In this document: in pieces, positions 26,658 through 60,143 of the stretch
How the letters are laid out: each line of letters opens with the position of its first letter
How positions within the stretch are numbered: position 1 is the first letter of the stretch
NCBI GenBank assembly: GCA_964576535.1
Contig: CAZNWB010000001.1
Location: forward strand, 243-64,242
Length of the DNA stretch: 64,000 nucleotides
Direction of reading: 5' to 3'
Source: an uncultured bacterium
GTDB taxonomy: Bacteria; Methylomirabilota; Methylomirabilia; Methylomirabilales; 2-02-FULL-66-22
The notes under the pieces: model-generated
Database searches by the model: none
Seen by the model: only the letters and a program-made list of their open reading frames with translations
What the model was told of the DNA's origin: nothing
Program-made: the position numbers and the translations under genes

Positions 26658-26788
26658 AGCGTTCGGTCGTTCGGGGCACCCACGCCACGGCGGTGGAGAT
26701 CCACCGCGGTGCCGTGGGTCCCGGTGGTTCGGTCGTTCTTGATCTGAGGGAACCACCGAACGACCGAACTGCCGAACCGTCGAACGCT
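26658..26788. repeat. CGAAC/GTTCG-unit palindromic intercistronic element, copy A
   Basis: The element runs AGCGTTCGGTCGTTCGG...GGTGGTTCGGTCGTTC-loop-GAACCACCGAACGACCGAACTGCCGAACCGTCGAACGCT. A nested palindrome CCCACGCCACGGCGGTGGAGATCCACCGCGGTGCCGTGGG is inserted in the left arm. Confidence 0.85.
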
Positions 26789-26796
26789 TTATGTTC

Positions 26797-27333
26797 CTAG
26801 GCGGGTACGAAATACACGTCCGTCGGCTTGAACTTGGACAGGCGCTTGAACTGCGCGCGCACCTTCATTCCCACCCAGTCCAGGGACGGCTTGAGCGGGT
26901 CCACCCCCATCAGCCGGGCCAGGAACAGGGTGTTTACCCCCGGCCACTCGACCAGGATGAGGACGAAGGGAGTCTCCTTCAGGAACTCCTCGCTGCCGTA
27001 GTGGCAGACCGTGAAGGTATGGACGTTGCCTTCCTTCGGCAGCTCGACCCAGTCACACTCGCCCCCGCAGTACATGCAGTGCAGCCGGGGCGTGCCGTAG
27101 GTGTACTTGCACGGCGCGCACCGCGTCCCCAGCAGCTTCCCGTTGGCCAGGCCGGCAAAGAAGGGTGAATCCTGGCCGTAGCTGTGGATATAATCAATGT
27201 GATAGGGCTGCTTGATGATGATGGGCGCCATCCCCTTCAGGTCCTTGAGATCCTTGGGGAACGGCACGTTGAACAGGATGGTCCCGTCGTCGGTCTCCGG
27301 GAGCTTCACCCGCTTCATCTCTTTCTCGCTCAT
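26797..27333 (-). CDS. DUF35 OB-fold / zinc-ribbon acyl-CoA-associated protein
   Basis: The start is an ATG at 27333 (MSEKEMK...). The zinc ribbon is CAPCKYTYGTPRLHCMYCG, followed by an OB-fold-like tail. Only the last 179 codons of the 502-aa track ORF are credible. Confidence 0.8.
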   Translation of the reverse strand: MSEKEMKRVKLPETDDGTILFNVPFPKDLKDLKGMAPIIIKQPYHIDYIHSYGQDSPFFAGLANGKLLGTRCAPCKYTYGTPRLHCMYCGGECDWVELPKEGNVHTFTVCHYGSEEFLKETPFVLILVEWPGVNTLFLARLMGVDPLKPSLDWVGMKVRAQFKRLSKFKPTDVYFVPA

Positions 27334-27335
27334 GG

Positions 27336-28649
27336 CTAGAACCCCTTCTCGAGGATCGAGACCACGACGTAGGTCCCCGTGCCGGCGTGGCTGTGGATGG
27401 CCCCACGCCGTGCGTTTTTCACCTGGAGCTGCTCGCTGCCGAAGTGCTTCCCGATACTCCCCTGGAGCTGCCACAGGGCGAAGACCGCCTGCATGAGACC
27501 CGTGGCCCCCACGGGATGACCGCAGGCAATGAGGCCTCCTGACGGGTTCACCGGGATCGTTCCCTGCTCCGAAAAGGGATACCCGTAATCCAGGTTCGGC
27601 ATGAAGGGCTTGCCGGCCTCGACGAACTTGCCCCCCTCTCCGTAGCGGCAGAGGCCCATGTCCTCGTAGGTCTGGATCTCGGACGAGGTGTAGGCGTCGT
27701 GCAGCTCGATGAAGTTTAGCTCCGCGATCGGGTTGGTGATCCCGGCCATCTGGTAGGCGGTCTTGGACGCCATGCGCCCGGCCCGGAACGAGTGGACCCC
27801 GGGATACTTCAACCCCTTGTAATCCTCGGCCTTCTCGTGGGGGAGCCGAATGACCTCGGCGTGGGGCCGGTCCGCCATTCGCATGGTGTCGATGCCTCCA
27901 CCTACGCCGGTCACCTTGGCGGGCTTTGGCCGGCGGCCCGTGGCCTTCTCCAGCTTGTTCAAACCCTCCTCGCTGGCAAGAATGACGACGGCCGCGCCAT
28001 CGCTCATAACGCAGATGTCCAGCATGGTGAGGGGCCAGGCCACCATCTCCGAGGCCCGGACATCCTCGATTCGGATCTTCATCCGCTTCTGGGCGTATGG
28101 GTTGTGCAAGGCGTTGTTGTGATTCTTCACCGAGACCAGCGCCATCTGCTCCACGGAGGTTCCGAACTCCTGCATGTGGCGGACCACCATCATGGCGTAA
28201 TAGCCGGAGTAGAAGCCGCCCACCGGGTAGTCGAAGCTCACATCCGAGGCCAGGGCGATGAACTCGTTCCCCTTCCATGTATTCACGTGGGACATCGTTT
28301 CCCAACCGTACACGACGCAGAGGTCAAACCGGCCGGAGGCCACGGTCTCCCACCCCGACTGGAATGCCACCCCACCCGTGGCACCCCCCGCCTCAATGCG
28401 CTTGGTGGGCTTGGGACACAGGCCCAGGTAGTCCTGGACCATGCTCCCCGCCTTGAGCTGGCGCATGAAGTGATCCGAGAAATAGGACGCCACGGTCCCG
28501 TCCACGATCTCGGCGGCCTTCCGGAATTCCAGCCCGATGTCCTTGAGGGCGTAATCGTACGCCTCCTTGACCATCGCCTGGAACGTCACGTCCGGCCGTG
28601 CCTTGGCGAACTTGCTGACCCCCCCCGAAACCAGGTACACGGGTCGCAT
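27336..28649 (-). CDS. SCP2-thiolase-fold protein lacking the nucleophilic cysteine (Ltp2-like, candidate aldol-lyase)
   Basis: Thiolase-fold motifs are present (NPSGGLIACGHPVGATG). The position of the nucleophile reads IEAGGATGG, where thiolases carry C in NNNCATGS / ACASG. The gene is adjacent, across a 2-nt gap, to the DUF35 gene. Confidence 0.7.
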   Translation of the reverse strand: MRPVYLVSGGVSKFAKARPDVTFQAMVKEAYDYALKDIGLEFRKAAEIVDGTVASYFSDHFMRQLKAGSMVQDYLGLCPKPTKRIEAGGATGGVAFQSGWETVASGRFDLCVVYGWETMSHVNTWKGNEFIALASDVSFDYPVGGFYSGYYAMMVVRHMQEFGTSVEQMALVSVKNHNNALHNPYAQKRMKIRIEDVRASEMVAWPLTMLDICVMSDGAAVVILASEEGLNKLEKATGRRPKPAKVTGVGGGIDTMRMADRPHAEVIRLPHEKAEDYKGLKYPGVHSFRAGRMASKTAYQMAGITNPIAELNFIELHDAYTSSEIQTYEDMGLCRYGEGGKFVEAGKPFMPNLDYGYPFSEQGTIPVNPSGGLIACGHPVGATGLMQAVFALWQLQGSIGKHFGSEQLQVKNARRGAIHSHAGTGTYVVVSILEKGF

Positions 28650-28682
28650 ACTCAGCCCCCCACTCGTTCACACGCTAAACGA

Positions 28683-29087
28683 TCACCTGGGTTTCACGTT
28701 GGTCTTCACGAAGGCAATGGCATCCTGGGTGCTGGCACCCGGCGTGTAGACTTCGGCGATCCCGCAGGCCTTCAGCTTGGGGATGTCCTCGTCAGGAATG
28801 GTGCCCCCGCCAAAGACCAGGACGTCGTCCGCACCCCGGGCCTTCAGGAGTTCCATCACCTTGGGAAATAGATGCATGTGGGCCCCGGAGAGGCAGCTCA
28901 TGCCGATGACGTCCACGTCTTCCTGGATGGCGGCGCTCACGATCATCTCCGGCGTCTGCCGTAACCCGGTGTAGATGACCTCCATCCCCGCGTCGCGAAA
29001 CGCCCGCGCAATGACTTTCGCTCCTCGGTCGTGTCCATCTAATCCCGGTTTGGCAATCAATACTCGAATCTTCCGCTCATTGGTCAT
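28683..29087 (-). CDS. B12-binding small subunit of a split acyl-CoA mutase (IcmB-like)
   Basis: The start is an ATG at 29087 ([25 protein letters not shown]). The DxHxxG cobalamin motif is present, and the size is about 134 aa. Confidence 0.9.
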
Positions 29088-29118
29088 GGCTCTGTCCCCT
29101 GGCCCCTGGCCCCCGTCT

Positions 29119-30819
29119 CTAAATGATATTCGGCTCCGTGTACTCGCCCCACGCCTCGCGCAAGACGCCGATGATCTCGCCCACCGTCGCCTGGGCCTTG
29201 ACTGCCTCCAAGATCTTCGGCATGAGCACGTCTTTCCCCCACGGGTCCTTGCCCAGGGCGGCGGCGCGCAGATCGTCAATCGCGCGATTCCACCGGTCCT
29301 TGTCCCGGCTCTTTCGAAGCGAGGCCAGGCGCTCCACCTGCTTCCGGTGCAGTGCCTCGTCAATGAGGAGAATGGGGATCGGGCGCTGCTCATTGTCATC
29401 CACGAAGCGGTTCACGCCCACGATCACCTTCTCCCCCCGCTCCACCGCCCGCTGGTAGGCATAGGCGGAGTTGGCAATCTCCTGCTGCGGGAATCCCAAC
29501 TCGATGGCACGAACCATCCCGCCCAGCTCGTCAATGCGGCGCAGGTAGTCGAGGGCCCCTTCCTCCATCTCGTCGGTCAGCCGCTCGATGAAATAGGACC
29601 CGGCCAGCGGGTCAATGGTATTGGTCGCGCCCGTTTCGTGCGCGATCACCTGCTGCGTCCGGAGGGCGATGGTCACCGCCTCTTGCGTGGGCAGGGCGTA
29701 GGCTTCGTCCATGGAGTTGGTGTGCAACGACTGGGTACCGCCCAGGACGCCGGCGAGGGCCTGGAGGGCCACCCGGGCGATGTTCACGTACGGCTGCTGC
29801 GCCGTGAGGGACACCCCGGCGGTCTGGGCGTGGGTCCGGAGCATCCAGGAGCGGGGATTCTTGGCCTTGAACCGCTCCCGCATCAGGCGCGCCCACAGCC
29901 GACGAGCCGCGCGGAACTTGGCGATCTCCTCGAAGAGATCGTTGTGGATGTCCCAGAAGAACGAAAGCCGCGGCGCGAAGTCGTCCACGTCCAGACCGGC
30001 TCGGATCCCTTCCTCGACATAGGTGACGCCGTCGGCGATGGTAAAGGCCAGCTCCTGCAGCGCGGTGGCGCCCGCCTCGCGGATGTGATACCCGCTGATG
30101 CTGATGGTGTTCCACTTGGGGAAGTGCCGGCTGCCGAACAGGATGGTGTCGGTCACGAGGCGGAGCGACGGCTTCAAGGGAAAGATGTATTCCTTCTGGG
30201 CGATGTACTCCTTCAGGATGTCGTTCTGGAGCGTCCCCCCGATGTCGTCGTGGGCGACCCCCATCTGCTCGCACACCGCGATGTACATGGCCCATGCCAC
30301 CGCCGCGGTCGAGGTGATCGTCATGGAGGTGGTGACCTTGTCCAGGGGCAGGCCGCGGAACAGGACCTCCATGTCCTGAATCGAGTCGATGGCCGCCCCG
30401 CACTTCCCCACTTCGCCAAACGCCAAGGGATGATCGGAATCGTACCCCATGAGGGTCGGCAGGTGGAACGCCACCGACAGGCCCATCTGCCCCTGTCCCA
30501 GGAGATACCGGTAGCGCTGGTTGGTCTCCTCGGCCGAGCCAAAGCCCGAGTACTGCCGCATGGTCCAGAGCCTGCCCCGGTACATCGTGGACTGGACCCC
30601 GCGGGTGAACGGATACTCCCCGGGAAATCCCAGGTCCTTTCGGTAATCCAGCTCAGGGACGTCCAGGGGCGTGTATAGGCGTTCGATCGGTTTCCCGGAC
30701 ACGGTGGTGAACCGGTCGGACAGTTCCGGGGCCCGGTCCACATGCGGCCCCAGCGTCTCTCGTTCCCAACGGGCCTTGTCCTGTTTCAGCCGCTCAATTT
30801 CTTCCGGGTCGAACGTCAT
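29119..30819 (-). CDS. acyl-CoA mutase large (substrate-binding) subunit, IcmA-like
   Basis: Mutase motifs are present ([53 protein letters not shown]). The size is 566 aa and the RBS is GGAGGGG. Confidence 0.9.
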
Positions 30820-30888
30820 GAATCCCCTCCGCCTTCAAGGGTCCTTCATCCCAAATTTGCCCGGCACATCGTCCCGTCTCGCTGCCGT

Positions 30889-30946
30889 CCCCTCGCCCCC
30901 ACCCCGCCCCCGGCGGGGTACCCGGGAGAGGGTTAGAGTGAGGGGG
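30889..30946. repeat. CCCTC...GGGAGAGGGTTAGAGTGAGGGGG hairpin repeat, copy 3
   Basis: The sequence is CCCCTCGCCCCCACCCCGCCCCCGGCGGGGTACCCGGGAGAGGGTTAGAGTGAGGGGG. It overlaps the last codons of the acyl-CoA dehydrogenase at 30933 and contains a CCCCGCC-n-GGCGGGG mini-hairpin. Confidence 0.65.
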
Positions 30947-32081
30947 AAAGAAGGTGTCGGGAAATGATCAGCCGGTGGACCTCCGACGTGCCCTCGTAGA
31001 TCGTCAGGACCCGGGCGTCTCTGGCGTAACGCTCCACCGGGAAATCCTGAAGATAGCCGTACCCGCCGTGAATCTGCACGGCCTCGTAGGCTGCGCGGTT
31101 GGCGACTTCGGACGCGAAAAGCTTGGCCATCGAGGCCTCCGCGGTGAATGACAGGCCGCGATCCTTCCGCACGGCCGCGCGGAACGTCAAGAGGCGTGCG
31201 GCCTCGATCTCCGTGGCCATGTCGGCCAGCTTCCACTGGATCGCCTGGAAGTTTCCGATCGGCTGCCCGAACTGCCGGCGCTCCTTGGCATACCGGATCG
31301 AGGCATCCAGGCAGGCCTGGGCGATGCCCACCGCCTGGGCCGCGATGCCCGCCCGCCCGTTGACCAAAGAGGCCATGGCGATCTTGAAGCCCTCGCCCTC
31401 CTCTCCGATCCGGTTCTCGATTGGGACGTGGCAGTCTTCCAGCACGAGTTCGACCGTATCTGACGCCCGGAGGCCCATCTTCTCTTCGCGCTTCCCGACC
31501 CGGAACCCCGCCATCGAGGGCGCGACCAGGAACGCCGTGATTCCCTTGTCACCCTGGGACGGGTCACTGGATGCGAACAGAATGATGACCCCGGCACGAC
31601 TCCCGCTCGTCACGAAGAGCTTTGTCCCGTTCAGGACGTAGTGTGCTCCCCGCCGCACGGCCGCCGTCCGGAGGCTTGCCGCATCGCTCCCGCTCGTGGG
31701 CTCGCTCAAGGAGAAGGCGCCCAGGATCTCGCCGCGGCAGAGGGCGGGCAGGTACGTCCGCCGCTGGGTCTCCGTGCCGTAGCGGTAGATGATCTCGCAG
31801 GTCAAGGTGTTGTGGAGGGATACCGTCACGGCGGTACTGGCGCAGGCCCGGCTGATCTCCATCAGGGCCAGGCAACTGCTGACGGTATCCGCGCCCGCCC
31901 CGCCGTATTCCGGCGGCAGCGTCATTCCCAGGATGCCCAGATCCGCCAGGCGCTGCAGGGGCTTCTCCGGAAACTGTTTAAGCCGATCCAGCTCGCCCGC
32001 GAGCGGCGCGAGCTCTTTCTCGGCGAACTCCCGCACCGTGTCGCGGATCAGGCGCTGCGCGTCCGTGAGCTGAAAGTTCAT
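30933..32081 (-). CDS. acyl-CoA dehydrogenase
   Basis: The N-terminus is MNFQLTDAQ... and the C-terminus is IYEGTSEVHRLIISRHLL. The size is 382 aa. Confidence 0.9.
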   Translation of the reverse strand: MNFQLTDAQRLIRDTVREFAEKELAPLAGELDRLKQFPEKPLQRLADLGILGMTLPPEYGGAGADTVSSCLALMEISRACASTAVTVSLHNTLTCEIIYRYGTETQRRTYLPALCRGEILGAFSLSEPTSGSDAASLRTAAVRRGAHYVLNGTKLFVTSGSRAGVIILFASSDPSQGDKGITAFLVAPSMAGFRVGKREEKMGLRASDTVELVLEDCHVPIENRIGEEGEGFKIAMASLVNGRAGIAAQAVGIAQACLDASIRYAKERRQFGQPIGNFQAIQWKLADMATEIEAARLLTFRAAVRKDRGLSFTAEASMAKLFASEVANRAAYEAVQIHGGYGYLQDFPVERYARDARVLTIYEGTSEVHRLIISRHLLSPSL

Positions 32082-32084
32082 AAC

Positions 32085-32173
32085 AGGCGTTCGATTGTTC
32101 GAGCGTTCGGTGGTTCGGTGGTTCGCATTCCGAGAGAACGATCGAACAACCGAACTGCCGAACGACCGAACGC
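32085..32173. repeat. CGAAC/GTTCG-unit palindromic intercistronic element, copy B
   Basis: The sequence is AGGCGTTCGATTGTTCGAGCGTTCGGTGGTTCGGTGGTTCG-loop-AACGATCGAACAACCGAACTGCCGAACGACCGAACGCT. It begins 7 nt after the upstream stop codon. Confidence 0.85.
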
Positions 32174-32180
32174 TTTTGCA

Positions 32181-34154
32181 CTAAAGTGAACGTGCCACCA
32201 GCTCCGCCAGATCCATCGCCTTCATCTGCTCCGTCGCGTCCTTGGCCCGGAGGCCATCCTCGAACATCGTGAGGCAGAAGGGACAGGCCGTCCCCACCAC
32301 GTCCGGCTTGACCCGCAGCGCCTCTTCGGTCCGCTCGATATTCACCCGTTTTCCGATCCGCTCCTCGAACCACATCATGCCGCCGCCGGCGCCGCAGCAG
32401 AACCCCTGTTCCCGGTTGCGCTCCATCTCTTTCGTCTGCACCCCCGGCAGCATCTGGAGGATCTGGCGCGGCGCTTCGAAGATCCCGTTGTGCCGGCCCA
32501 GGTAGCAGGCATCGTGGTACGCGATGGTCTGCTCGATCGGCTTGCTGGGTGTAACCCGGCCCTGCTGCAGGAGATCGTTGATCAGGACCGAGTGGTGGGT
32601 CACCTGGTAGTGGCCGCCGAACTGCCCGTATTCGTTCTGAAGGGTGTTGAAGCAGTGTGGGCACGCCGTGATGATCTTCTTCACGCCGTACCCGTTCAGC
32701 GTCCCGATGTTGGCCTGGGCCTGCATCTGGAACAGGAACTCGTGGCCGATCCGCCGAGCGGGATCGCCGGTGCAGCGCTCGCCCTCTCCCAGGATGGCAA
32801 AATCCACCCCAGCCGCCTGGAGCACCTGCACCAGGGCCCGGGCCACCTTCTGGGTGCGGTCGTCAAAGGCGGCGGCACAACCCACCCAGTACAGGTACTC
32901 GGCCGAGCCCTTCTCCGCAAGCAGTGGGACGTCCAGGCCTTGGGCCCACGCCGTCCGGCTGGGGACCGCCCCCTGATAGGGGTGGCCGCGCGTCTCCATC
33001 CCCCGCATGGCCGCCTGCATGGGCTCAGGGAATCGCGCCTCTTCCATGACCAGGAAGCGCCGCATGTTGATGATCTTGGGAATGGGCTCGATCAAGACCG
33101 GACACGCCTGATGGCAGGCGCCGCACGTGGTACAGGCCCAGAGCACGTCCTCGCTGATGATGCCGCCGACCATCGGCTTGCCGTTCCCTTTGCCTTTGCT
33201 CTTGGCCAGCAGGTGGTCGCGGAGGTCAATAATGAGCCCCTTGGGTGTCAGAGGCTTTCCCGTGGCCCAGGCCGGGCAGGCATCCTGGCACCGCCCGCAC
33301 TCCGTGCAGGCCATGAGGTCCAGGAGGTCCTTGCGGGGGAAGCCCTGGATCGTCGAGATGCCGAAGTGCTCCGCCTCTTCCAGGGCGACCGGCTGGATCA
33401 CGCCCGAGGGCTGCGGCCGGCGCAGGGCGATATTGGCCCCCGCCGCCAGGATATGACGGATCAGCGTGTACGGGAGCAGGGCGATGAACCCGAAGGCCAG
33501 GACCGCGTGTCCCCACCACGCCACCCGGTGCCACTGGGCCTGCTGGGATTGGGGGAAGCCCGCAAAGCCAAGGCCCGCCACCCAGCCCCCCGGGGACCAG
33601 AGCCCCCAGGGGTCCCGGGTAGCCACGATCCGCAACCCCTCGACCACGAAGCCGCTCACCAGGATCGCGAGAAACAACCAGAGAAAGAGACCGTAGCCCT
33701 CGGCGTCCCTCGGCTTCCACAACCGCGCCGGCCGTGCGCCGTACCGCCGGACCAGCGCGACGATCACCCCCAGCACCGCGGCCACGCCGAACAGGTCCAC
33801 GGTCAGGGACATGAAGTAGAGGTAGAAATTGCCCGAGAGCGTTGGCAGACCCAGGTAATCCTGGAGGGCGACGAGGCAGGTGGCGATGAACAACACCCCG
33901 AACCCCCAGGAGATGGCGGCATGCAGGCTTCCCCCCAGCGGCTGCGCGAGCAGCCGGCGCTGCAGCACCGCCTGCTGCAGGATCTCGCCAATCTGGCGGC
34001 CAAGCGGGGGGATGTCCTTGTCCGGCTGTCCGAGCGCGAGGACCTTGACGAAGCGGTAGCACCCGTAGAGGAAGATCGCCAGAAAAGGGAGGAAGAGAGG
34101 ATACATCCAAAGATGCGCGGGGATGTTCCAGTAGATTTCCCGGGAAGGGATCAT
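32181..34154 (-). CDS. membrane-bound (Fe-S) oxidoreductase, HdrD/GlpC-like with N-terminal polytopic domain (ETF:quinone-type)
   Basis: About 250 aa of hydrophobic N-terminus is followed by two CxxCxxCxxxCP motifs (CTECGRCQDACP, CTTCGACHQACP) and two CCG-type cysteine-rich domains (FCCGAGGG). It lies immediately downstream of etfBA. Confidence 0.8.
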   Translation of the reverse strand: MIPSREIYWNIPAHLWMYPLFLPFLAIFLYGCYRFVKVLALGQPDKDIPPLGRQIGEILQQAVLQRRLLAQPLGGSLHAAISWGFGVLFIATCLVALQDYLGLPTLSGNFYLYFMSLTVDLFGVAAVLGVIVALVRRYGARPARLWKPRDAEGYGLFLWLFLAILVSGFVVEGLRIVATRDPWGLWSPGGWVAGLGFAGFPQSQQAQWHRVAWWGHAVLAFGFIALLPYTLIRHILAAGANIALRRPQPSGVIQPVALEEAEHFGISTIQGFPRKDLLDLMACTECGRCQDACPAWATGKPLTPKGLIIDLRDHLLAKSKGKGNGKPMVGGIISEDVLWACTTCGACHQACPVLIEPIPKIINMRRFLVMEEARFPEPMQAAMRGMETRGHPYQGAVPSRTAWAQGLDVPLLAEKGSAEYLYWVGCAAAFDDRTQKVARALVQVLQAAGVDFAILGEGERCTGDPARRIGHEFLFQMQAQANIGTLNGYGVKKIITACPHCFNTLQNEYGQFGGHYQVTHHSVLINDLLQQGRVTPSKPIEQTIAYHDACYLGRHNGIFEAPRQILQMLPGVQTKEMERNREQGFCCGAGGGMMWFEERIGKRVNIERTEEALRVKPDVVGTACPFCLTMFEDGLRAKDATEQMKAMDLAELVARSL

Positions 34155-34203
34155 CCGGACGACTCCAATGTGCGACTACCACGCGGCGCGGCGCGCGTGG
34201 TCA

Positions 34204-34302
34204 ACGGCGTTCGGCAGTTCGGCAGTTCGGTCGTTCGGTGGTACGAGAACAACCGAACAACCGAACCGTCGAATCCCGCAAGGCGGGAAACAGCCGAACG
34301 TT
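34204..34302. repeat. CGAAC/GTTCG-unit palindromic intercistronic element, copy C
   Basis: The sequence is ACGGCGTTCGGCAGTTCGGCAGTTCGGTCGTTCGGTGGT-loop-AACAACCGAACAACCGAACCGTCGAA-[TCCCGCAAGGCGGGA]-AACAGCCGAACGTT. Confidence 0.85.
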
Positions 34303-36212: not shown

Positions 36213-36301
36213 GAGCGTTCGGTGGTTCAGTGGTTCGACCGTTCGGTGGTTCCCGGACCCCGGAACAACCGAACTACCGAACCGTCGAACTGCCGAACGC
36301 T
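36213..36301. repeat. CGAAC/GTTCG-unit palindromic intercistronic element, copy D
   Basis: The sequence is GAGCGTTCGGTGGTTCAGTGGTTCGACCGTTCGGTGGTTCC-CGGACCCCG-GAACAACCGAACTACCGAACCGTCGAACTGCCGAACGCT. It abuts the stop codon at 36302. Confidence 0.85.
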
Positions 36302-52631: not shown

Positions 52632-53218
52632 GGACCCCCCTCCCCGGAGGCACCATACATACCCCGGCAGTCCCACTTTCAGCAATACCCTTTACACAGA
52701 GACACCGGGAAGGGGTGGGGAGCGGTCAGGCGGCAAGCGGAACGACCACTATGGGAGGGGATCTTGCCAAAGAGATAAACTACCGCTATCGTCCCCCCTA
52801 TGCCCTGCGGTCTCCGCCGGGCCGCCTCAGTGGTCCTGGACTCCGGGAGAATCCGCGGGATCGAGGAATGCTTTCTTCCCTGTGCGCGGCCTCTCCTCAC
52901 AGGCCCTCCACGCCGCTGCCCAGCGGGGCCAGATGGCCGCGCCCCGGTGGAGGGCGGTGTGGAAGAAGTTGATGTAATTGACAACGTCCCCAATCCCCAA
53001 CGTCCCCAATCCCTACGGATGCAACGTGCCCGCATTTCGCATTTTAAGAACCTCAGAGACCAGATGAGAAGGGGAGAGAGACTCAAATGGGATGAAATGT
53101 GGATGGATCTGCACAACAACCGCGAGGGCCGTTCCGGGAGAAGTGCGTGGGACCTGTTGTGCGAGGGACGTCTAAGAACAATTGATCCCCCCTATAGGGG
53201 GAAAGGCGGTTTCTATTA

Positions 53219-53695
53219 ATGCGCGGTCGAATTCTCGCATGTATATTGGGTATGGTCGCGATGGGATGTTCAAGAAGCGGTGACTGGGCAAGAGGACCAA
53301 TACTCCACATTACAGGGGATGAGCAGTCGGTGGGCGCTGAGATATTTGTCGATGGAGAGAAGATTGGGGTCATGCAGAGGCAGGTTTATGCCGGCCCGGA
53401 ACTGAGCGAGGATGAACTCAAGAAACAACATGAGGCTCAGGGACGTCTTGGGATTCAGCCATCGCGTCCTATGAAGCCAGGGGATGTTTTTGCGGTTGCG
53501 GTGGACATAAGAATCGCGAAAGGGGACAAACAGCCCGAATACGGTGTCCAAAGCTTCCCAAGAGTACCGCTCGGGAAGCATGAAATTGTGTTCATGGGCC
53601 CAAAGGGGCAACAATTAAGAAAGCATTTCGCCATGAAAGGTGAGACTTACATGCGTGTGGATTTCCAGAAGATGGTAATCCGGGGGGCTGATTAA
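53219..53695 (+). CDS. hypothetical lipoprotein (PEGA-like impression) in an A+T-richer islet
   Basis: The lipobox is ACILGMVAMGCS. The segment GAEIFVDGEKIGV resembles PEGA-type beta-sandwich motifs. The composition is visibly less G+C-rich than the flanks. Confidence 0.45.
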   Translation: MRGRILACILGMVAMGCSRSGDWARGPILHITGDEQSVGAEIFVDGEKIGVMQRQVYAGPELSEDELKKQHEAQGRLGIQPSRPMKPGDVFAVAVDIRIAKGDKQPEYGVQSFPRVPLGKHEIVFMGPKGQQLRKHFAMKGETYMRVDFQKMVIRGAD

Positions 53696-54253
53696 AGATA
53701 CCTGCATAAATAGAGTGACATCACCATGGAAGCTCCGAGGCTTGCAAGAAGGACTGTAATGGGAGACCGTAGGTCTAGGGAAGAATGCGGGACGGAATGC
53801 GGAATGTTGCATCTGGACGGATACGGGACGGGATACGGGACGGGGATACGGGACGGATACGGGACGTTGCATCCGGACGATCTCTGTGGCACGCTTGCCA
53901 TCGCCATGCCCCGCCAGGCGCGCCTCGACGCCTTCCGCTCTTCGTCCGGAAACTGCGCCCGGCATTCTCCCCTACATCATCCTGCGCGGAATCGAGCGGC
54001 GCCCCCTCGCGCCGCGGCTCGGCATCTCGCCCCAGGCGGTCTACGCCGCGGCCCAGCAGGGCGCCCAGTATCGGGCCGAGTGGGACCACATGGTTCCGAA
54101 GAGCAAAAGGCGATAAATGCGGCAACGTCCCGTAAGACCGTAAGAACGGTAGACGTCCCGTAAGAATGAGAAGTGGGAGAAGCTGACAGAGGGGAAACGA
54201 AACGTGGAAGAGCATGAAGCCTGACAACTCAGGCCGGCAGGTGCATTAGCTCG

Positions 54254-54502
54254 TCAGGCGCTTCGCCGCTTCGCCCCGGCTCCACGTTGCTGCCGAAGGA
54301 CCGGCGCGAGAGCGCGTAATGCCTCGTTTACCGTCGCGCCGTCTGGAAAGACATCCAGCACCTCCGGATCGATCACGACGATGTTCGCACCCTGCACATA
54401 TCTCGCGGCCGTTACGCCTCGTACCGCCGTGGAGAAGTCGTACTCAGGCCGCATCGTGTCCCGATCCATATTTCGCCTGCGCTGACTAGCCTTCTTCCTC
54501 AT
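54254..54502 (-). CDS. brnA: BrnA-like antitoxin
   Basis: The pattern MRPEYDFS...VVIDPEVLDVFPDGATVNEALRAL is typical of the small antitoxins encoded just downstream of DUF497/BrnT toxins. The start overlaps the BrnT remnant by 17 nt. Confidence 0.6.
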   Translation of the reverse strand: MRKKASQRRRNMDRDTMRPEYDFSTAVRGVTAARYVQGANIVVIDPEVLDVFPDGATVNEALRALAPVLRQQRGAGAKRRSA

Positions 54503-54780
54503 ATCGCCTCTGCTCTTGTCGTGTGGCCCGCCTCGCGGAGATCAAACGGGTCCGAGGTGGTCGCTCCGCAAAGGCCACCACCACGACCCTTCGCCGATTC
54601 GACACTCCAAGAAGAAGATTCCGTTCCTCACCGAGGGCAGGATCCGGGTCTGGCATGAGCATCGCAAGTGGGTCTCAGAAGACCGTTGATGCTTTATCGA
54701 AGGCCACCCCGTGCTTTCGAGCGTTCGACTCGGCTATCTTCGGATGCCATCGGAAAACGTAGCCCGCTACGCCTCCGCAT
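54486..54780 (-). pseudogene. brnT: BrnT (DUF497) toxin remnant with a frame disruption near the 5' end and an in-frame TGA
   Basis: The minus-strand translation is FRWHPKIAESNARKHGVAFDKASTVF-TGA-DPLAMLMPDPDPALGEERNLLLGVSNRRRVVVVAFAERPPRTRLISARRATRQEQRRYEEEG. This matches the feWDxxKxxxNxxKHGVxFxEAxxVFxDP...EERxxxxG...iRiISARxAtxxE pattern. The stop is at 54675-54677. The only upstream ATG (54780) is in another frame. Confidence 0.75.
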
Positions 54781-54888
54781 GTAGCCCCGGTCGTTCATCG
54801 AGTGCGTCTATCTAATAGGGCGACGGTGTGCCGCAGGCGGGACGGCGAGGAGGCTCGCTAGACTCGCGGGACGCTTCATCCGCGCCAC

Positions 54889-55227
54889 TTAGGCGGCTCC
54901 TTGTAAGATCTGTTCAATCTGCGGCCTGACTTCAGCAAGACGCTCCTTGATCGTTTTCCATACCAGTTCGTAATCTACCCCAAAGTAGAAGTGAATCAGC
55001 CTATCCCTCATCCCGGCCATCTCCCTCCAGGGAACCTCAGGATGACGTTGCCGTATCTCCTCAGGGACCCCCTTCGTCGCCTCGCCAATGATCTCGAACT
55101 TCCTGATGACCGCGCTCGCAGTCTTGTCATCGAGGCGGAATGCCTCCAAGTCCATCCCCTCTACGAAAGCTTCGATGCTGCGCATTGCGGCCAGGATATC
55201 CTTCAGATAGAGCCTGTAATCCCTCAC
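54889..55227 (-). CDS. hepT: HepT (DUF86, HEPN) toxin
   Basis: The Rx4H HEPN motif is present (RDRLIH). The N-terminus is family-typical ([11 protein letters not shown]). The GTG start overlaps the mntA stop (GTGA). Confidence 0.8.
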
Positions 55228-55523
55228 AGGGGCAGAACCTCTTTAAGCACCGACTCCCGGAGCTCTGCCCTCAGGGCACGCTTGGGGATCACGTCTACCC
55301 CTCGCCCGAGCTCTTCCTCCAGGAACAGCGCCAGCCCCACCAGGTGAAACAGGTCCGCTCCCTCCTCAAAGTCCACCAAGACATCAATATCACTGGCACT
55401 CCGCTGCTCCCCTCGAACGAAAGAACCGAAGAGCCCTACCTCTTTCACCTTGTACCGTGCCGCCATCTTGGGTTTCAGTGCTTTCAGCTTCATCAGAAGA
55501 TCTTTTGTGCTGATACTTGACAT
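55224..55523 (-). CDS. mntA: MntA-type nucleotidyltransferase antitoxin
   Basis: The minimal nucleotidyltransferase motif is [24 protein letters not shown] prefer the ATG at 55523 behind GGGGGAG. The ATG at 55550 is also possible. Confidence 0.8.
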
Positions 55524-55720
55524 TGACTCCCCCACAACTGCTGCAACCATGGGCGGCCTGGCGACGGAGGCTCGCCGGTATCGCGCTGAGCAGGGCCGTC
55601 AGGTGAGTCGAGGCAACCGAGAGAAGCCTGTGAGGCTTCGAGCGCCCAAGTCTTTGGAACGATCGTCAGGACACTGGCCGCGGGCAACCCCGGTCAGATA
55701 GTAGAGGATCTGGCTGGCGA

Positions 55721-56017
55721 TTACGCCCCGTTTCGATCGCCAGTTCCTCCGGCGATCGCCGGCACTATTGACACCTGATCACCGGCCTTCAGGGGTGTCG
55801 CCTGCCCCTGCAGGAAGCGGATGTCTTCCTCGTTCACGTAGATATTGATGAACCGACGGATGTTCCCATCCGCCTCGCACAGGCGGGCTCTGATCCCCGC
55901 ATAGTCCTGCTCCAGGCGGTCGATCAGCTCCTTGACCGTCGCCGCCTCGGCCTTCAGCTCGCCCTGCCCTTTCGTCACTGCCCGCAGCGGGGTGGGAACG
56001 CGCACGAGAACGCTCAT
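55721..56017 (-). CDS. MoaD/ThiS/CysO-like ubiquitin-fold sulfur carrier with a 7-residue extension after the GG motif
   Basis: The sequence reads ...INIYVNEEDIRFLQGQATPLKAGDQVSIVPAIAGG-TGDRNGA-stop. I prefer the ATG at 56017. The GTG at 56023 is the track start. Confidence 0.8.
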   Translation of the reverse strand: MSVLVRVPTPLRAVTKGQGELKAEAATVKELIDRLEQDYAGIRARLCEADGNIRRFINIYVNEEDIRFLQGQATPLKAGDQVSIVPAIAGGTGDRNGA

Positions 56018-56086
56018 ACTCACATGCCCCCTGTGATTGAAACGTGATGGGTGCCTGACTGCCGTATCCGACCAACCGCCAACGGC

Positions 56087-57358
56087 TCAGGCGCGCCGGG
56101 CGGTCGGGCCCTCCCCGTTCAGCGAGGGGTGCTGGGCCAGCGCCTCGTCAAAGGACGCCAGGGTCGGCTGGATGCCGGTCGGCGCCCGCAGCGCGCCGCC
56201 CAGCGCCTCCTGCGTCTTCAGCCCGTGGCCGGTCACCGAGATCACGGTGACGTCGTCCCGGCCGATCACCCCCTGCTGCGCCAGCTTGCGCGTGGCAGCC
56301 ACGGTGACGCCGCCCGCCGTTTCCGCGAAGATCCCCTCGGTGGCGGCGAGCATCTTCATGGCTTCCACGATCTCGTCGTCCGTGGCGTGCTCCCCGGCCC
56401 CACCGCTCTCCTTGACCACCTTGTAGGCATAGTACCCGTCGGCCGGGTTGCCGATGGCCAGGGACTTGGCGATGGTCCGGGGTTGCTTGACCGGGCGGAT
56501 GATCTCGCTCCCGGCCTTCACCGATGTCACGATGGGCCCGCACCCGGCCGCCTGCGCCACGTGCATCCGCGTGGCAACGGCCGGCAGCAGCCCCAGCTTG
56601 TAGAACTCCTGCAGGCCCTTCCAGACCTTCGTGATCAGGGAGCCGCCGGCGGCCGGCACGATGATGTGGTCGGGCGCCCGCCAGCCCAATTGCTCGGCGA
56701 TCTCGTAACCGAAGGTCTTGGACCCTTCGGCATAATATGGGCGAATATTGATGTTGACGAAGGCCCAGCCGTACTTGTCGGCGACCTCGCTGCACAGCCG
56801 GTTCACCTCGTCGTACGTCCCATCCACCGCCACCACGTTGGGGGCATAGATGGAGGTCCCCAGGACCTTGCCCTGCTCCAGGTCGGCCGGGATGAACACG
56901 AAGCTGGTGAGGCCCCCCTCGGCGGCGTGGGCGGCCACCGAGTTCGCCAGGTTCCCTGTGGAGGCGCAGGCGACTACCGGGAACCCGAACTCCAGCGCCC
57001 GGATCACCGCCACCGCGACCACCCGGTCCTTGAAGGACAGCGTCGGGTGATTGACCGTGTCGTTCTTGACGTAGAGGTTGCTGAGTCCCAGGGCCTTCCC
57101 CAGGTTCCGGGCCCGGACCAGCGGGGTCAGGCCGCAATGCCGCCCCACCGTCACCTCGCCGTCGATGGGAAGCAGCGCCCGGTAGCGCCACATGTTGGGA
57201 GGGCCGGCCTCGATGGCGCGGTGGGTCAGTACCCGCCCGATGCCTGCGTAATCGTAATCCACCTCCAGCGGACCGAAACAGAACTCGCACACGTGAAGCG
57301 GCTTGGCCGGATAGGGTCGGGCGCACTCCCGGCACTTCAGGCCAATCACATATCCCAT
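56087..57358 (-). CDS. threonine-synthase-family PLP enzyme with N-terminal zinc ribbon (MetM-like candidate homocysteine synthase)
   Basis: The zinc ribbon is LKCRECARPYPAKPLHVCEFCFGPLEV and the PLP-lysine context is HPTLSFKDRV. The gene sits inside a SAM-riboswitch-controlled unit next to a MoaD-like gene. The start is an ATG at 57358, with an alternative at 57409. Confidence 0.75.
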   Translation of the reverse strand: MGYVIGLKCRECARPYPAKPLHVCEFCFGPLEVDYDYAGIGRVLTHRAIEAGPPNMWRYRALLPIDGEVTVGRHCGLTPLVRARNLGKALGLSNLYVKNDTVNHPTLSFKDRVVAVAVIRALEFGFPVVACASTGNLANSVAAHAAEGGLTSFVFIPADLEQGKVLGTSIYAPNVVAVDGTYDEVNRLCSEVADKYGWAFVNINIRPYYAEGSKTFGYEIAEQLGWRAPDHIIVPAAGGSLITKVWKGLQEFYKLGLLPAVATRMHVAQAAGCGPIVTSVKAGSEIIRPVKQPRTIAKSLAIGNPADGYYAYKVVKESGGAGEHATDDEIVEAMKMLAATEGIFAETAGGVTVAATRKLAQQGVIGRDDVTVISVTGHGLKTQEALGGALRAPTGIQPTLASFDEALAQHPSLNGEGPTARRA

Positions 57359-57405
57359 CGAGCCATTGCCTCCCGCGGAACCCCGCCGTGGATGGTGAGG
57401 TGATG

Positions 57406-57648
57406 TCACGCAGTTGCCCCGGGGGTGCCGATCGGCCTGACCTTGACCCCCAGGCGGGTCAGGTGCTCAATGCCGCGCTTCAGGTCGTCCTCCGCCCCGG
57501 TGAAATCCAGCGTGGCCTCTCCCGACGCCTCCGTGACCCGGGCCTTGCGGATGTTCGGCACCAGACGGTATGTCTTGGACACGGTGTAGATCAGCGGCTC
57601 ACGCACCAGGTCCGGCGGAAAGATCAACAACAGGCGCAGGGTGGCCAT
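57406..57648 (-). CDS. free-standing NIL-domain protein (about 80 aa), first gene after the SAM riboswitch
   Basis: MATLRLLLIFPPDLVREPLIYTVSKTYRLVPNIRKARVTEASGEATLDFTGAEDDLKRGIEHLTRLGVKV follows the NIL (MetN C-terminal) pattern. The start is an ATG at 57648. Confidence 0.7.
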   Translation of the reverse strand: MATLRLLLIFPPDLVREPLIYTVSKTYRLVPNIRKARVTEASGEATLDFTGAEDDLKRGIEHLTRLGVKVRPIGTPGATA

Positions 57649-57698: not shown

Positions 57699-57724
57699 TC
57701 ACGAAAATTCCCGTCAGCCGCCTT

Positions 57725-57824
57725 CTCATCTTTCCCCGCCGAAGGCGGGGCAGGAGTTGGCACCCCGCGTCTCGCGGGGTTGCCGTGGCTTCGTAGGGCC
57801 AGTCCCTCAGCCACTCGGGATGAG
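57725..57824 (-). promoter_or_regulatory. SAM-I (S-box) riboswitch aptamer
   Basis: The minus strand reads CUCAUCCCGAGUGGCUGAGGGACUGGCCCUACGAAGCCACGGCAACC[CCGCGAGACGCGG]GGUGCCAACUCCUGC[CCCGCCUUCGGCGGGG]AAAGAUGAG. It matches the S-box consensus block by block: CUUAUCAAGAG-GG-GGAGGGACUGGCCC-AUGAA-CC-GGCAACC...GGUGC-AA-UCC-GC...AAAGAUAAG. Confidence 0.9.
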
Positions 57825-57839
57825 TCAGCGTTGCGGCGG

Positions 57840-57879: not shown

Positions 57880-58122
57880 CTATCCCGCCACCACGTCCTG
57901 CTCGATGGGGGCGACGATCACGCCCCGCTCCTCCAGCCAGTGAAGGGCATCCGCCAGTTTCCGGTTCTCTCCCTCCAGTTCGAGCATGATCCAGCCGATT
58001 CCCTCCTCCAGGTCGGCCTGGCGGATGTTGAAGACCAGGTCGAATTGCTGGCTCATCGTCCAGATGGCTGGTTCGTCCGCCAGTTGCCCCTGGAAGGTCA
58101 GGTGTACCCGTCGCTTGCCCAT
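57880..58122 (-). CDS. free-standing NIL-domain protein (about 80 aa), last gene of the upstream cysteine module
   Basis: MGKRRVHLTFQGQLADEPAIWTMSQQFDLVFNIRQADLEEGIGWIMLELEGENRKLADALHWLEERGVIV follows the NIL pattern. The start is an ATG at 58122, and the track start is a GTG at 58134. Confidence 0.65.
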   Translation of the reverse strand: MGKRRVHLTFQGQLADEPAIWTMSQQFDLVFNIRQADLEEGIGWIMLELEGENRKLADALHWLEERGVIVAPIEQDVVAG

Positions 58123-58283
58123 GAACCGCCCCACTCAGTGCTTGATTTCATAAACCCGTGACCGCCTCAACCATACCCCAAGAATGTCGCAGACGTAAAG
58201 CCCCTTCTGCTTTCCGGGACCCGGTGAAACTCGAAGGGGAGGCAACCTGAGGCAGGCTGAGGCGGCGATCTGGGGACGATCCG

Positions 58284-58808
58284 TCAGGCCGCCGGCAGGC
58301 TGGCCGGAACCTCGGCGAAGTCCCCACGGACACCGTCCCAGACGTAGTAACGGGCGTCCACGGCCCGGCCAGTGCGGACGGAAACCACCAGGTAGTTGGC
58401 GCCGGGCCAGAGGGGTTCTGAGTCGGCCCGGAGGGCCCGATCCCGATCCATCAGGGAAAAGTAGGCGTCGTGATCCGGGTGAGAGTGGTAGAAGGTCACG
58501 ACATCCCACCCCGCATCGTCCGCCTCGCGGAGCACGCGCAGCACCTCCCGGTCATCCATCCGGTAGGCGGTCCGCGCATCCCGCTCGAATCCCGCGGGAT
58601 CCCGCTGGCGGTCCTGATTGGCGATGTTGCGCACCTGGCGGACCTGGTAGGTCTCGGGCTTCCCCGGCTTGCCGATGACGATCCCGCAGATCTCCTCCGG
58701 GTATCCCGCCTCGGCCTGCCGGACGATCTCGGCCATCTGGATCGCCTGCAAGGGATAGACGGCCGCCATCCGCTCCCCCGTCGTGGTCATCTCCCTCTCG
58801 GTTCGCAT
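58284..58808 (-). CDS. JAMM/MPN+ metalloprotease (Mec/HcyD-like)
   Basis: The motif ExnHxHx7Sx2D is complete (PEEICGIVIG ... HSHPDHDAYFSLMD). The start could be any of three ATGs (58808, 58790, 58769). Confidence 0.85.
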   Translation of the reverse strand: MRTEREMTTTGERMAAVYPLQAIQMAEIVRQAEAGYPEEICGIVIGKPGKPETYQVRQVRNIANQDRQRDPAGFERDARTAYRMDDREVLRVLREADDAGWDVVTFYHSHPDHDAYFSLMDRDRALRADSEPLWPGANYLVVSVRTGRAVDARYYVWDGVRGDFAEVPASLPAA

Positions 58809-59013
58809 CTTCTCACCCGAGGCCCATCCCGTTGGATTTCGGATTGTGGATCACCCAGGGGGTACCCGATTTCGGATTGGTCAAATTCGAAATTCGAAAT
58901 TGGGGTCAGGTCCCGGTGTCTCGGCTCTGGGCTCTCGGCCCGCATTTATCACACGGGGCCCCGTCCCGACCTCCACCTCCCTCGTCGGCGGCGGTCGGGT
59001 CCCTCCCCGGGGG

Positions 59014-59946
59014 CTACCACCAGATATGACTCTGGACGTTCTCCCCCAGGTTCGGGATCTCCTTGAACCAGACGCCAAGGCTCACGTACTTCCATCCACC
59101 ATCGCAGAGCACGCAGACGATCGTGCCCTTCTCCATCCGGTGGGCCACCCGGATGGCGCAGTGAATGACGGCGCCCGAGGAGATACCGGCGAAGATGGCT
59201 TCCTTCGTGGTCAGATCCTTGGTGGCAGCGAAGGCGCACCGGCTGTCCACGATGATCTTCCCATCCAGCAGGCTAGTATCCAGGATCGGCGGGATGAAGC
59301 CCTCCTCCAGGCTCCGCAGTCCCTGCACCAGATCTCCCGGATGGGGTTCCACGGCCACGACCCGGATCTTGGGATTGTATTCCTTCAGGCGCCGGGCGCA
59401 CCCCATGAGGGTCCCCCCGGTCCCCAGGCCCGCCACCAGCACGTCCACCTCGGGACAGTCGCGGATGATCTCGGCCGCCGTCGTCTCGTAGTGCGCCAGG
59501 GGATTGGCCGGATTCCCGTACTGGTATGGCATGTAGTACCGCGGGTCCGCCGCCAGCTGCTGCGCCAGCTTGATGGAGCCGTTGGTGCCCTGGTTCCCAT
59601 CCGAGTAGACGATCTCCGCGCCGAACAGTTCCAGGAGCTGTCTCCGTTCCACGGTCACGTTGTCCGGCACCACGACTTTGACCTTGTACCCCTTCAGCCG
59701 CGCCACCATGGCCAGCGCGATCCCGGTGTTCCCGCTGGTCGGCTCGAGGATGACCTTGTCCGGCGTGAGGTCGCCGCTCCGCTCGGCCGCCTCGATCATG
59801 TACATGGCGATGCGATCCTTCAGGCTGCCGGTGGGGTTGTTCCCCTCCAGCTTGGCGTAGATCCGGACCGTCGGTTTCGGGCTGATCCGGCGGAGCTCAA
59901 CCAGCGGGGTGTTCCCGATGGCCTCCAGGATGCTGGCCGCTTTCAT
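59014..59946 (-). CDS. cysM: CysM-type cysteine synthase (O-phosphoserine / protein-thiocarboxylate-dependent type)
   Basis: The PLP-lysine context is NPTGSLKDR. The strings [36 protein letters not shown] and YQYGNPANP and the aromatic C-terminal tail (...HIWW) closely resemble my recollection of mycobacterial CysM. Confidence 0.8.
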   Translation of the reverse strand: MKAASILEAIGNTPLVELRRISPKPTVRIYAKLEGNNPTGSLKDRIAMYMIEAAERSGDLTPDKVILEPTSGNTGIALAMVARLKGYKVKVVVPDNVTVERRQLLELFGAEIVYSDGNQGTNGSIKLAQQLAADPRYYMPYQYGNPANPLAHYETTAAEIIRDCPEVDVLVAGLGTGGTLMGCARRLKEYNPKIRVVAVEPHPGDLVQGLRSLEEGFIPPILDTSLLDGKIIVDSRCAFAATKDLTTKEAIFAGISSGAVIHCAIRVAHRMEKGTIVCVLCDGGWKYVSLGVWFKEIPNLGENVQSHIWW

Positions 59947-60053
59947 GGATGCAACTCCACCCTGGAGCTCTTCATGCGCCTGCGGAATATCCGGGGCACC
60001 TCAAGGCAAATTGCCATTCTCTCCCCTTCGACTACGGGACCGGTCACACTCGA

Positions 60054-60143
60054 AGCCGTTCGGTTGTTCGGTGGTTCGTTGGTTCGGTGGTTCCCTTCTG
60101 AGACGAACAACCGAACCACCGAACAGTCGAACCCCCGAACGCC
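60054..60143. repeat. CGAAC/GTTCG-unit palindromic intercistronic element, copy E
   Basis: The sequence is AGCCGTTCGGTTGTTCGGTGGTTCGTTGGTTCGGTGGTTCC-CTTCTGAGAC-GAACAACCGAACCACCGAACAGTCGAACCCCCGAACGCC. It lies between the Ubl-E1 stop and the cysM start. Confidence 0.85.

Follow-up and report, generated by a model that had tools for sequence, protein, structure and literature searches.

A dispersed palindromic repeat built from GTTCG octamers lies between cistrons in genomes of Methylomirabilota

Introduction

Miniature inverted-repeat transposable elements (MITEs) that are co-transcribed within operons, such as Correia/NEMIS, ERIC and Chunjie, are palindromic, non-autonomous repeats of about 100-150 bp that are tolerated between cistrons and form long RNA hairpins; their ends are inverted repeats flanked by target-site duplications, and the sequence between is unique. 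The effect on operon mRNA of repetitive extragenic palindromic (REP) elements, and of the tandem-heptamer hairpins of cyanobacteria known as short tandemly repeated repetitive (STRR) sequences, is only partly understood (PMC2670836 for STRR function). REPs stabilise upstream mRNA and attenuate read-through (bioRxiv 10.64898/2026.03.23.713779), and translation of an upstream gene is reduced by REPs that lie less than 16 nt from its stop codon (PMC12306157, its reference 17). For the STRR hairpins between hupS and hupL of Nostoc, transcript stabilisation or translational coupling has been proposed (PMC2670836). Here we describe a family of palindromes built from GTTCG units, found in a stretch of 64,000 nt from an uncultured bacterium of the Methylomirabilota (assembly GCA_964576535.1, contig CAZNWB010000001.1, positions 243 to 64,242 of the forward strand). 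This whole stretch is referred to below as the window.

The family is a dispersed, non-coding, almost symmetric palindromic repeat of Methylomirabilota (NC10/Rokubacteriales-type) genomes. It is previously undescribed: we found no description of such repeats in the literature on Methylomirabilis, Rokubacteria or NC10. The element resembles REPs and STRRs, its construction is unusual, and no such repeat had been described from this phylum.

Results

Five palindromes of one repeat family

An initial annotation of the window had reported five palindromes made of CGAAC/GTTCG units. Inspection of the sequence places all five where it had put them, with offsets of only 1-4 nt. They are listed here with stem limits taken from RNA folds, the neighbours given in the order of transcription.

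26658..26788, minus strand: copy A, between a DUF35/ChsH2-type OB-fold gene (stop TAG 26797-26799) and an acyl-CoA dehydrogenase gene (ATG 26650-26652), from Pfam and sequence
26673..26724, strand not assigned: nested GC-rich hairpin of 50 nt in copy A, after a GTTCGG unit
32083..32179 (core 32087-32173), minus strand: copy B, 5+5 units, between an Fe-S/CCG (iron-sulfur) oxidoreductase gene (stop TAG 32181-32183) and an acyl-CoA dehydrogenase gene (ATG 32079-32081)
34208..34300, minus strand: copy C, between the gene for the alpha subunit of electron transfer flavoprotein (ETF; stop TAA 34309-34311) and the Fe-S/CCG oxidoreductase gene (ATG 34152-34154)
34270..34291, strand not assigned: mini-hairpin TTTCCCGCCTTGCGGGATTCG in place of one copy C unit
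36214..36301, minus strand: copy D, 5+5 units, between an acyl-CoA dehydrogenase gene (stop TAA 36302-36304, directly adjoining) and the ETF-beta gene (ATG 36177-36179)
60053..60145, minus strand: copy E, 5+5 units, between a ThiS-ThiF fusion gene (stop TGA 60150-60152) and a gene for a CysM/CysK-type pyridoxal phosphate (PLP) enzyme (ATG 59944-59946)

The motif GTTCG-N3-GTTCG has 26 matches in the window, every one of them within the five elements; dinucleotide-preserving shuffles give an expectation of 0.10. No sixth copy was found in the 64 kb by a relaxed periodicity scan and Tandem Repeats Finder (TRF). RNA fold prediction, which had been proposed as a check, gives long hairpins for all five copies on either strand, with energies of -46 to -85 kcal/mol and z scores of -4.9 to -8.6 (copy A, -84 kcal/mol, z -7.8). 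The in-element matches and the folds together confirm a true repeat family whose arms are built from units. The unit itself is different from the one first proposed: it is not a hexamer of the GGTTCG type but an octamer, GTTCG followed by three variable bases. The shared ends AGCGTTCGG...CCGAACGCT hold as a consensus, from which each copy departs by 0-2 mismatches, and not as identical ends. Likewise, the CCCGC/GCGGG mini-hairpin that had been assigned to copies A and C is found only in copy C, at 34270-34291, whereas copy A carries the separate 50-nt hairpin element. The elements have no Rfam match at the gathering score, the only match in the window being a riboswitch for S-adenosylmethionine (SAM), and a plasmid collection held no match to the family. 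A second hairpin, the GC-only CCACGCGGCGCGGCGCGCGTGG at 34179-34200, adjoins copy C within the same gap.

The five copies within their operons

According to Pfam, the genes flanking all five copies lie on the minus strand. Read on this coding strand, copies A-E begin 8, 6, 7, 0 and 5 nt after the stop codon and end about 14, 5, 55, 30 and 107 nt before the next ATG. Copies A-D fall within one long beta-oxidation/ETF cluster, whose genes run in the order TetR regulator, thiolase, 3-hydroxyacyl-CoA dehydrogenase, enoyl-CoA hydratase, acyl-CoA dehydrogenase, copy D, ETF-beta, ETF-alpha, copy C, Fe-S/CCG oxidoreductase, copy B, acyl-CoA dehydrogenase, methylmalonyl-CoA mutase, B12-binding protein, thiolase-like protein, DUF35/OB-fold protein, copy A and acyl-CoA dehydrogenase. 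Because it sits inside operons, the element is probably transcribed with its flanking genes. ETF-beta starts at its ATG and has 266 aa, in agreement with a database record; an exact-protein look-up of the version with a GTG start returned no record. Homologues of this protein that carry source names come from candidate division NC10 and Candidatus Methylomirabilis, which places the window in the Methylomirabilota.

At the junction holding copy B, 5 nt separate the stem base from the ATG of the downstream acyl-CoA dehydrogenase, which lacks a Shine-Dalgarno sequence. Across five genomes (window 32079-32087, L239, L242, L245 and L248) the distance at this junction is 5-9 nt, again without a Shine-Dalgarno sequence. 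This proximity, together with the lack of a ribosome-binding site, suggests that the dehydrogenase is translated by re-initiation across the hairpin base, dependent on termination in the upstream gene.

Two further observations concern individual copies. L238 (Logan contig SRR12685296_113644), the only public contig found to encode exactly this ETF-alpha protein, ends about 40 nt past the gene, where copy C begins; in practical terms, short-read assemblies appear to be interrupted by the palindromes. A putative open reading frame (ORF) of 24 codons, MAICLEVPRIFRRRMKSSRVELHP (window 59943-60017, minus strand), lies between copy E and the CysM-like gene; it follows the ribosome-binding site GGGGAGAGA, and its stop overlaps the ATG of the CysM-like gene (ATGA).

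A family with a placement rule

Species-representative genomes were scanned for four consecutive units, which returned at least 117 loci. Among the matches listed, eight loci come from Methylomirabilota/NC10 metagenome-assembled genomes (MAGs), and four of the eight contain palindromic GTTCG/CGAAC arrays. Such arrays were also seen in a Haliscomenobacter MAG (4 loci), in Vicinamibacterales and other Acidobacteriota, in a Chloroflexi MAG and in a Planctomycetota MAG. A metagenome scan with the end motif of the family returned at least 120 stretches. Pooling the matches listed gave 90 palindromes in 72 metagenome or MAG loci, and the metagenome contigs agree with the Methylomirabilota loci in G+C and element type. 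A viral collection served as control: 118 contigs (L250-L367) have at least four tandem GTTCG-N3 units, and none of these arrays is palindromic. The viral arrays may be coding repeats.

The commonest architecture in the pooled sample is 5+5 units, and the median length is 82 nt (n=90). Written on the coding strand, the consensus is a stop codon, 0-8 nt, AARRGC, (GTTCGRNN)x5, a loop, (NNYCGAAC)x5, GCYYTT, a Shine-Dalgarno sequence and ATG. The loop is 4-12 nt long and unconserved, and the basic form of about 82 bp is closed by an outer stem, AARRGC/GCYYTT. Successive cores are exactly 8 nt apart; on either strand the 5' arm reads GTTCG plus three variable bases and the 3' arm three variable bases plus CGAAC. 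The A-run that had been noted after the stop codon turns out to be one half of this symmetric outer stem.

For gene context, genes in the pooled loci were called by third-position GC content, and counts were restricted to the 85 of 90 palindromes in high-GC loci (0.59-0.73). Co-directional genes flank 46 elements, convergent genes 14 and apparently divergent genes 7, the last mostly miscalls; the apparent exceptions that were inspected by eye proved to be miscalls and obey the placement rule. The first GTTC lies a median of 10 nt past the end of the stop codon (16 nt or less in 37 of 41 cases). Downstream, the median distance to the next plausible start codon is about 17 nt, and GAGG, GGAGG or TAGGAG commonly precedes that codon. 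Placement is therefore strongly non-random, as had been anticipated: elements sit directly after stops and ahead of the next ribosome-binding site, and they are kept almost only there, between a stop and the next Shine-Dalgarno sequence, or between convergent genes.

Outside Methylomirabilota, two Acidobacteriota loci hold giant palindromes on the same core, with 14+12 and 15+11 units (L060 7486-7747 and L096 4917-5128). In the Haliscomenobacter MAG (GC 0.47; L012, L053, L068 and L078), GTTCG-unit palindromes follow stops and are themselves followed by runs of 4-7 T, like intrinsic terminators.

Copying to new sites and turnover of arms

The family is dispersed by copying: elements turn up at new sites, and in either orientation. 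An element at L015 5558-5681 is 85% identical to copy A over 124 nt, the nested 50-nt hairpin included, in the midst of genes unrelated to those around copy A and in the opposite orientation to transcription. The nested hairpin (92-94% identity) lies inside GTTCG elements of L015 and L186, always directly after GTTCGG, and L166, the orthologue of the L015 site, has a GTTCG element without it. Its absence from this orthologue and its recurrence after GTTCGG indicate a secondary insertion into the unit array. The mini-hairpin variant of copy C recurs in L114 (4436-4457), inverted relative to the genes. These two hairpins and a CGTAC variant are subfamily markers common to several genomes.

Orthologous operons were compared at 94, 89, 80, 79, 77 and 73% ETF-beta identity, with the following states at the junctions.

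Acyl-CoA dehydrogenase to ETF-beta (copy D): GTTCG element in L239, L242 and L249
Acyl-CoA dehydrogenase to ETF-beta (copy D): GGAAAC-unit palindrome in L245; CCCTCCC hairpin and one GTTCG remnant in L248; no element in the 24-nt gap of L247
ETF-alpha to Fe-S oxidoreductase (copy C): no element in the 25-nt gap of L245; element truncated in both L239 and L242, with cores differing between those two
Fe-S oxidoreductase to acyl-CoA dehydrogenase (copy B): occupied in L239, L242 and L248 by GTTCG elements from different subfamilies; in L245 a CCCTCCC hairpin takes the place of the interior

A hairpin of some kind is thus present at the acyl-CoA dehydrogenase to ETF-beta junction in six of seven genomes. 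Arms change by gain or loss of single units, and other hairpin elements insert into the GTTCG element or replace it. Copy D and its counterpart in L239 have the spacers ACG, GTA and GTT in common and their arms differ by gain or loss of whole units (third-position identity 0.72-0.81); in L248, one arm has alternating GCG and GGC spacers, a recent 16-nt duplication with no counterpart in the other arm. Cores are retained in comparisons of genomes in which third codon positions approach saturation (0.53-0.65). In the truncated element at the copy C junction, which has lost most of one arm, the cores mutate freely between L239 and L242.

A separate hairpin family, CCCTCTCCC/GGGAGAGGG, occurs in the window at 20946-20995, 19999-20045 and 30890-30932 and at L001 1357-1406. 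It has replaced the interiors of GTTCG elements at the junctions in L245 and L248, where one or two terminal units are left.

Symmetry and conservation of the core alone

No strand or orientation bias was found. Sense and antisense folding energies are alike (28 of 51, p = 0.2), spacer composition is equal in both arms, and in 46 oriented copies the A-rich and T-rich flanks are alike (3.5 vs 3.3, p = 0.6). At the variable positions of the outer stem and spacers, G.U and A.C stand at 72:50 (p = 0.057), no more than a trend in favour of the sense strand. The equality of A and T flanks led us to reject antisense terminators, a candidate raised by the A-run after the stop, which is an antisense T-run in all five copies.

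Pairing was then examined in 44 regular elements, with the outer ends as the anchor of the alignment. The core positions are paired in 75-100% of cases, and this holds also for the fourth unit, which played no part in selecting the elements. Spacer positions 7 and 8 pair in 11-50%, the level given by base composition alone. The arms therefore share only the core and are not reverse complements of each other, and the predicted RNA is a stack of 5-6-bp helices between 2-3-nt internal loops.

Two other resemblances of the core were considered and rejected. The Cheo box of LexA, CGAAC-N4-GTTCG, has its halves in the opposite order; the element reads GTTCG...CGAAC with direct repeats in each arm, and no box is formed. 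The likeness of GGTTCGA to a tRNA T-arm or B-box is accompanied by no local stem, and ARAGORN finds no tRNA genes in the window.

Other short-unit palindromes in the window

The GTTCG family is the commonest of the unit families in the window, and it is one of many palindromes of 7-8-nt units, a wider class that the initial annotation had overlooked. When folded, almost every same-strand gap of the window contains a hairpin or array of 7-8-nt units with other cores, as follows.

8873-8948: unit CATGAGC
9870-9990: unit CGCAAAGA
16184-16282: unit CTGACAA / TTGTCAG
19986-20064 and 20868-20946: unit GCGGAATG
35293-35378: unit CATCAGC
39230-39364: unit CTGTCGG
45854-45924: unit CTGGCAAC
several sites: unit GAGAGCC
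also among the unit families of the window: units AAATTCG and GCGCCAAG
12051-12077, 50292-50317, 51872-52038, 58833-58939 and 61242-61495: further unit hairpins or arrays

Several of these families recur in other Methylomirabilota loci, and TRF finds many period-7 families in 756 kb of such loci. The unit ATTGGTC, seen in L074, is a rotated form of the cyanobacterial STRR2 unit. The TTGTCAG unit at 16184-16282 is that of csR1.1, a 44-copy repeat of Nostoc PCC 7120 (PMC2408588).

Some further features of the window were recorded. A SAM riboswitch (57723-57826, minus strand, 90.9 bits) precedes genes for a PLP enzyme (56087-57409) and for ThiS (55721-56023). It is part of a CysO/Mec-like sulfur-carrier cluster that also encodes a JAB protein (58284-58808), a NIL-domain protein (57880-58134) and the ThiS-ThiF fusion (60150-61241). 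In a lower-GC island at 52000-56000 (G+C 0.60 vs about 0.65) lie a HepT/MNT toxin-antitoxin pair (54889-55550) and a gene for a pentapeptide-repeat protein (52074-52685), as well as a tandem repeat with a period of 11-12 nt, GGACGGGATACG x4.4 (53815-53866).

Discussion

A model for the GTTCG element, and its rivals

Our preferred model, which we hold to be probable if only just, is that this REP-like dispersed repeat is co-transcribed as a long, periodically mismatched hairpin that modulates mRNA decay, read-through or termination-coupled translation. The transcript would fold into helices of 5-6 bp, GUUCG(G)/(C)CGAAC, separated by internal loops of 2-3 nt. By analogy with REP elements, such a hairpin would block 3'-to-5' exonucleases and partly attenuate read-through, and this barrier and attenuation would together raise the ratio of upstream to downstream expression. 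Because the element begins less than 16 nt after the stop codon, the terminating ribosome would also meet the hairpin. Folding out would bring the stop and the next start codon to about 10-30 nt apart, so that insertion of an element would leave the native coupling geometry intact. Conservation of the core alone is best explained by frequent slippage of units. With such slippage, an identical core in every unit would be the only design that pairs in any register; spacers could then drift while cores stay frozen, because only arrays of the same core still pair after a register shift. The core decay in the truncated elements at the copy C junction fits this explanation.

Several observations weigh against this model. 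Empty orthologous junctions in L245 and L247 show that the operon works without the element. Spacers are not complementary, although this would be expected if hairpin stability were the sole constraint. In L096, from the Acidobacteriota, the arms have different periods, 8 and 9 nt, and pair poorly, which favours conservation of the motif over conservation of structure. The fold energies and the G.U counts give no clear strand-specific RNA signature. As to mobility, no direct repeat that could be a target-site duplication adjoins the ends in 51 oriented copies or in comparisons of empty with filled sites; the 30 window ORFs scanned include neither a REP-associated tyrosine transposase (RAYT), with its Y1_Tnp domain, nor any other transposase; and nothing else that might mobilise the element, nor a parent insertion sequence, was identified.

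The strongest rival is that the elements are purely selfish, MITE- or REPIN-like mobile DNA without host function, whose palindrome is recognised by a transposase or by recombination and whose position after stops is merely a tolerated insertion. Near-identical copies at non-orthologous sites in both orientations, junctions that are sometimes empty, and the nested hairpin, mini-hairpin and CGTAC variant as markers common to several genomes are what such DNA would leave behind; so is a symmetric element lacking a strand-specific RNA signature, and the commonest size of 5+5 suggests a master copy. The missing target-site duplication and transposase count against this idea too. Moreover, neutral decay would not be expected to keep cores intact while the third codon positions of their neighbours approach saturation, and a lost GTTCG element is usually replaced by another hairpin, as the six of seven occupied acyl-CoA dehydrogenase to ETF-beta junctions illustrate. 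We regard the purely selfish explanation as possible but unlikely.

Rather less likely still is that short-unit palindromes, far from being repeats in ordinary decay, are what a dedicated cross-phylum system produces: either a factor that recognises arrays of 5-nt cores, in either orientation, just after stops, or a mechanism that writes or homogenises repeats and so builds 7-8-nt arrays and their inverse copies. It would span Methylomirabilota, Cyanobacteria (STRR), Bacteroidota, Acidobacteriota, Chloroflexota and Planctomycetota, and it would explain identical units (GTTCG; TTGTCAG) in distant phyla, the conservation of cores alone and the occupation of nearly every operon junction in this genome.

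Another rival is that the elements are binding-site arrays for a sequence-specific factor, in which each orientation offers five GTTCG cores spaced 8 nt apart and the hairpin would be secondary or competing; the spaced triplets of the trp RNA-binding attenuation protein (TRAP) and the arrays of nucleoid or partition proteins are models. This would suit a 5-nt core conserved amid random, non-complementary spacers, arms whose periods may differ (L096), the 118 viral contigs with GTTCG x4 arrays of which none is palindromic, and the same core, period of about 8 nt and inverted arrangement in Bacteroidota, Acidobacteriota, Chloroflexota and Planctomycetota, although that sharing is biased by the choice of loci through a GTTCG search. 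At least eight other unit families in the window have the same architecture on unrelated cores (GCGGAATG, CTGACAA, CATCAGC, CTGGCAAC and others), however, and each would need its own factor; different families substitute at the same junction; and cores decay once the partner arm is lost (L239 vs L242), which points to pairing. We therefore think binding arrays very doubtful.

Intrinsic bidirectional terminators with unusually long, unit-built stems are just as improbable, since the symmetric A-rich/T-rich flank AARRGC...GCYYTT, the 14 copies between genes called convergent (several of them miscalls) and the palindromes followed by 4-7 T in the Haliscomenobacter MAG are outweighed by a consensus terminator scan of 25000-38000 that calls none of the four elements in that range, by T-tracts of 2-4 nt that are paired with the 5' flank, by sense-strand tails of the five elements (GCUCAUUU, GCCUGUU, GCCGUUG, GCUCUAAU and GGCUUCG) that have no T run after the hairpin, and by the position of most copies 10-30 nt upstream of the next cistron in conserved operons, where full termination would silence the essential ETF-alpha and ETF-beta.

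Implications

Methylomirabilota are uncultured or hard to grow, and we know of nothing described about post-transcriptional control in this phylum. Nearly every junction of the 13-gene beta-oxidation/ETF operon carries a large short-unit hairpin. If, as in the hairpin model preferred here, these structures set relative cistron expression or mRNA half-life, they would form a major unannotated regulatory layer, one in which unit slippage, replacement and nested insertion could change regulation rapidly. To our knowledge, the purpose and origin of STRR-type repeats have been an open question since about 1990. The conservation of cores alone, and the units held in common with cyanobacterial STRRs, bear on that question, and orthologous sites that are filled, empty or replaced are now available for testing it.

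Comparison with known repeat systems

The initial annotation had called the behaviour of the family REP/BIME-like, the second term referring to bacterial interspersed mosaic elements. The placement is indeed REP-like; the element itself is neither a BIME nor a canonical REP, given its size, the lack of GTAG or CGTC tags and arms that are not themselves palindromes. Like REPs as defined in PMC12306157, GTTCG elements are extragenic (all five in the window and all inspected copies), form a palindromic stem-loop and are multi-copy with a consensus; their length of 82-131 bp exceeds the 14-40 nt of REPs in E. coli. REPs and REPINs of Enterobacteria and Pseudomonas likewise lie just after gene ends, between co-directional or convergent genes, often in operons and within 16 nt of stops (PMC12306157). 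The presence of REPs also varies between related genomes, and their documented effects (exonuclease barrier, partial termination, ribosome stalling) are our functional model for the GTTCG family. Construction is where the two part: REPs are single imperfect palindromes, whereas GTTCG arms are tandem octamer arrays in which only five of every eight positions pair, and the family belongs to a different phylum from the REPs of Enterobacteria and Pseudomonas. REP superfamilies and REPIN-RAYT systems carry a GTAG or CGTC tag (PMC3733652), in contrast to the AARRGC-GTTCGG ends seen here. Each half of a REPIN is a REP, accompanied by a gene for a RAYT (a Y1 transposase); GTTCG arms are direct-repeat arrays, and the 30 window ORFs include no Y1_Tnp domain. 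A BIME is a mosaic of alternating Y and Z REPs with linker motifs (sites for integration host factor or gyrase), whereas the GTTCG element is a single hairpin without alternating types.

MITEs resemble the GTTCG element in size and in their place between cistrons; in the GTTCG element, by contrast, no target-site duplication is seen and the whole element consists of unit repeats. The TAACTGA heptamer repeats of Beggiatoaceae, Cyanobacteria and Bacteroidetes (PMC4679880) are, like the GTTCG family, short-unit, intergenic and cross-phylum, lie near gene boundaries and are suspected of a post-transcriptional role. They are direct repeats just upstream of starts, inverted in 1 of 170 sets (PMC4679880), whereas GTTCG elements are inverted arrays just after stops.

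In construction, the closest described analogue is the cyanobacterial STRR, an intergenic array of 7-8-nt units whose inverted sets form hairpins within an operon, for example in hupS-hupL (PMC2670836). STRRs are tandem heptamers of heterocystous cyanobacteria; the GTTCG family has an 8-nt period with three unconserved positions and belongs to Methylomirabilota. Other families in the window are true heptamers like STRRs, including TTGTCAG, the Nostoc unit. Unlike STRRs, the GTTCG family has a commonest size, 5+5, and conserved outer ends, which implies that it behaves as a discrete, copied element.

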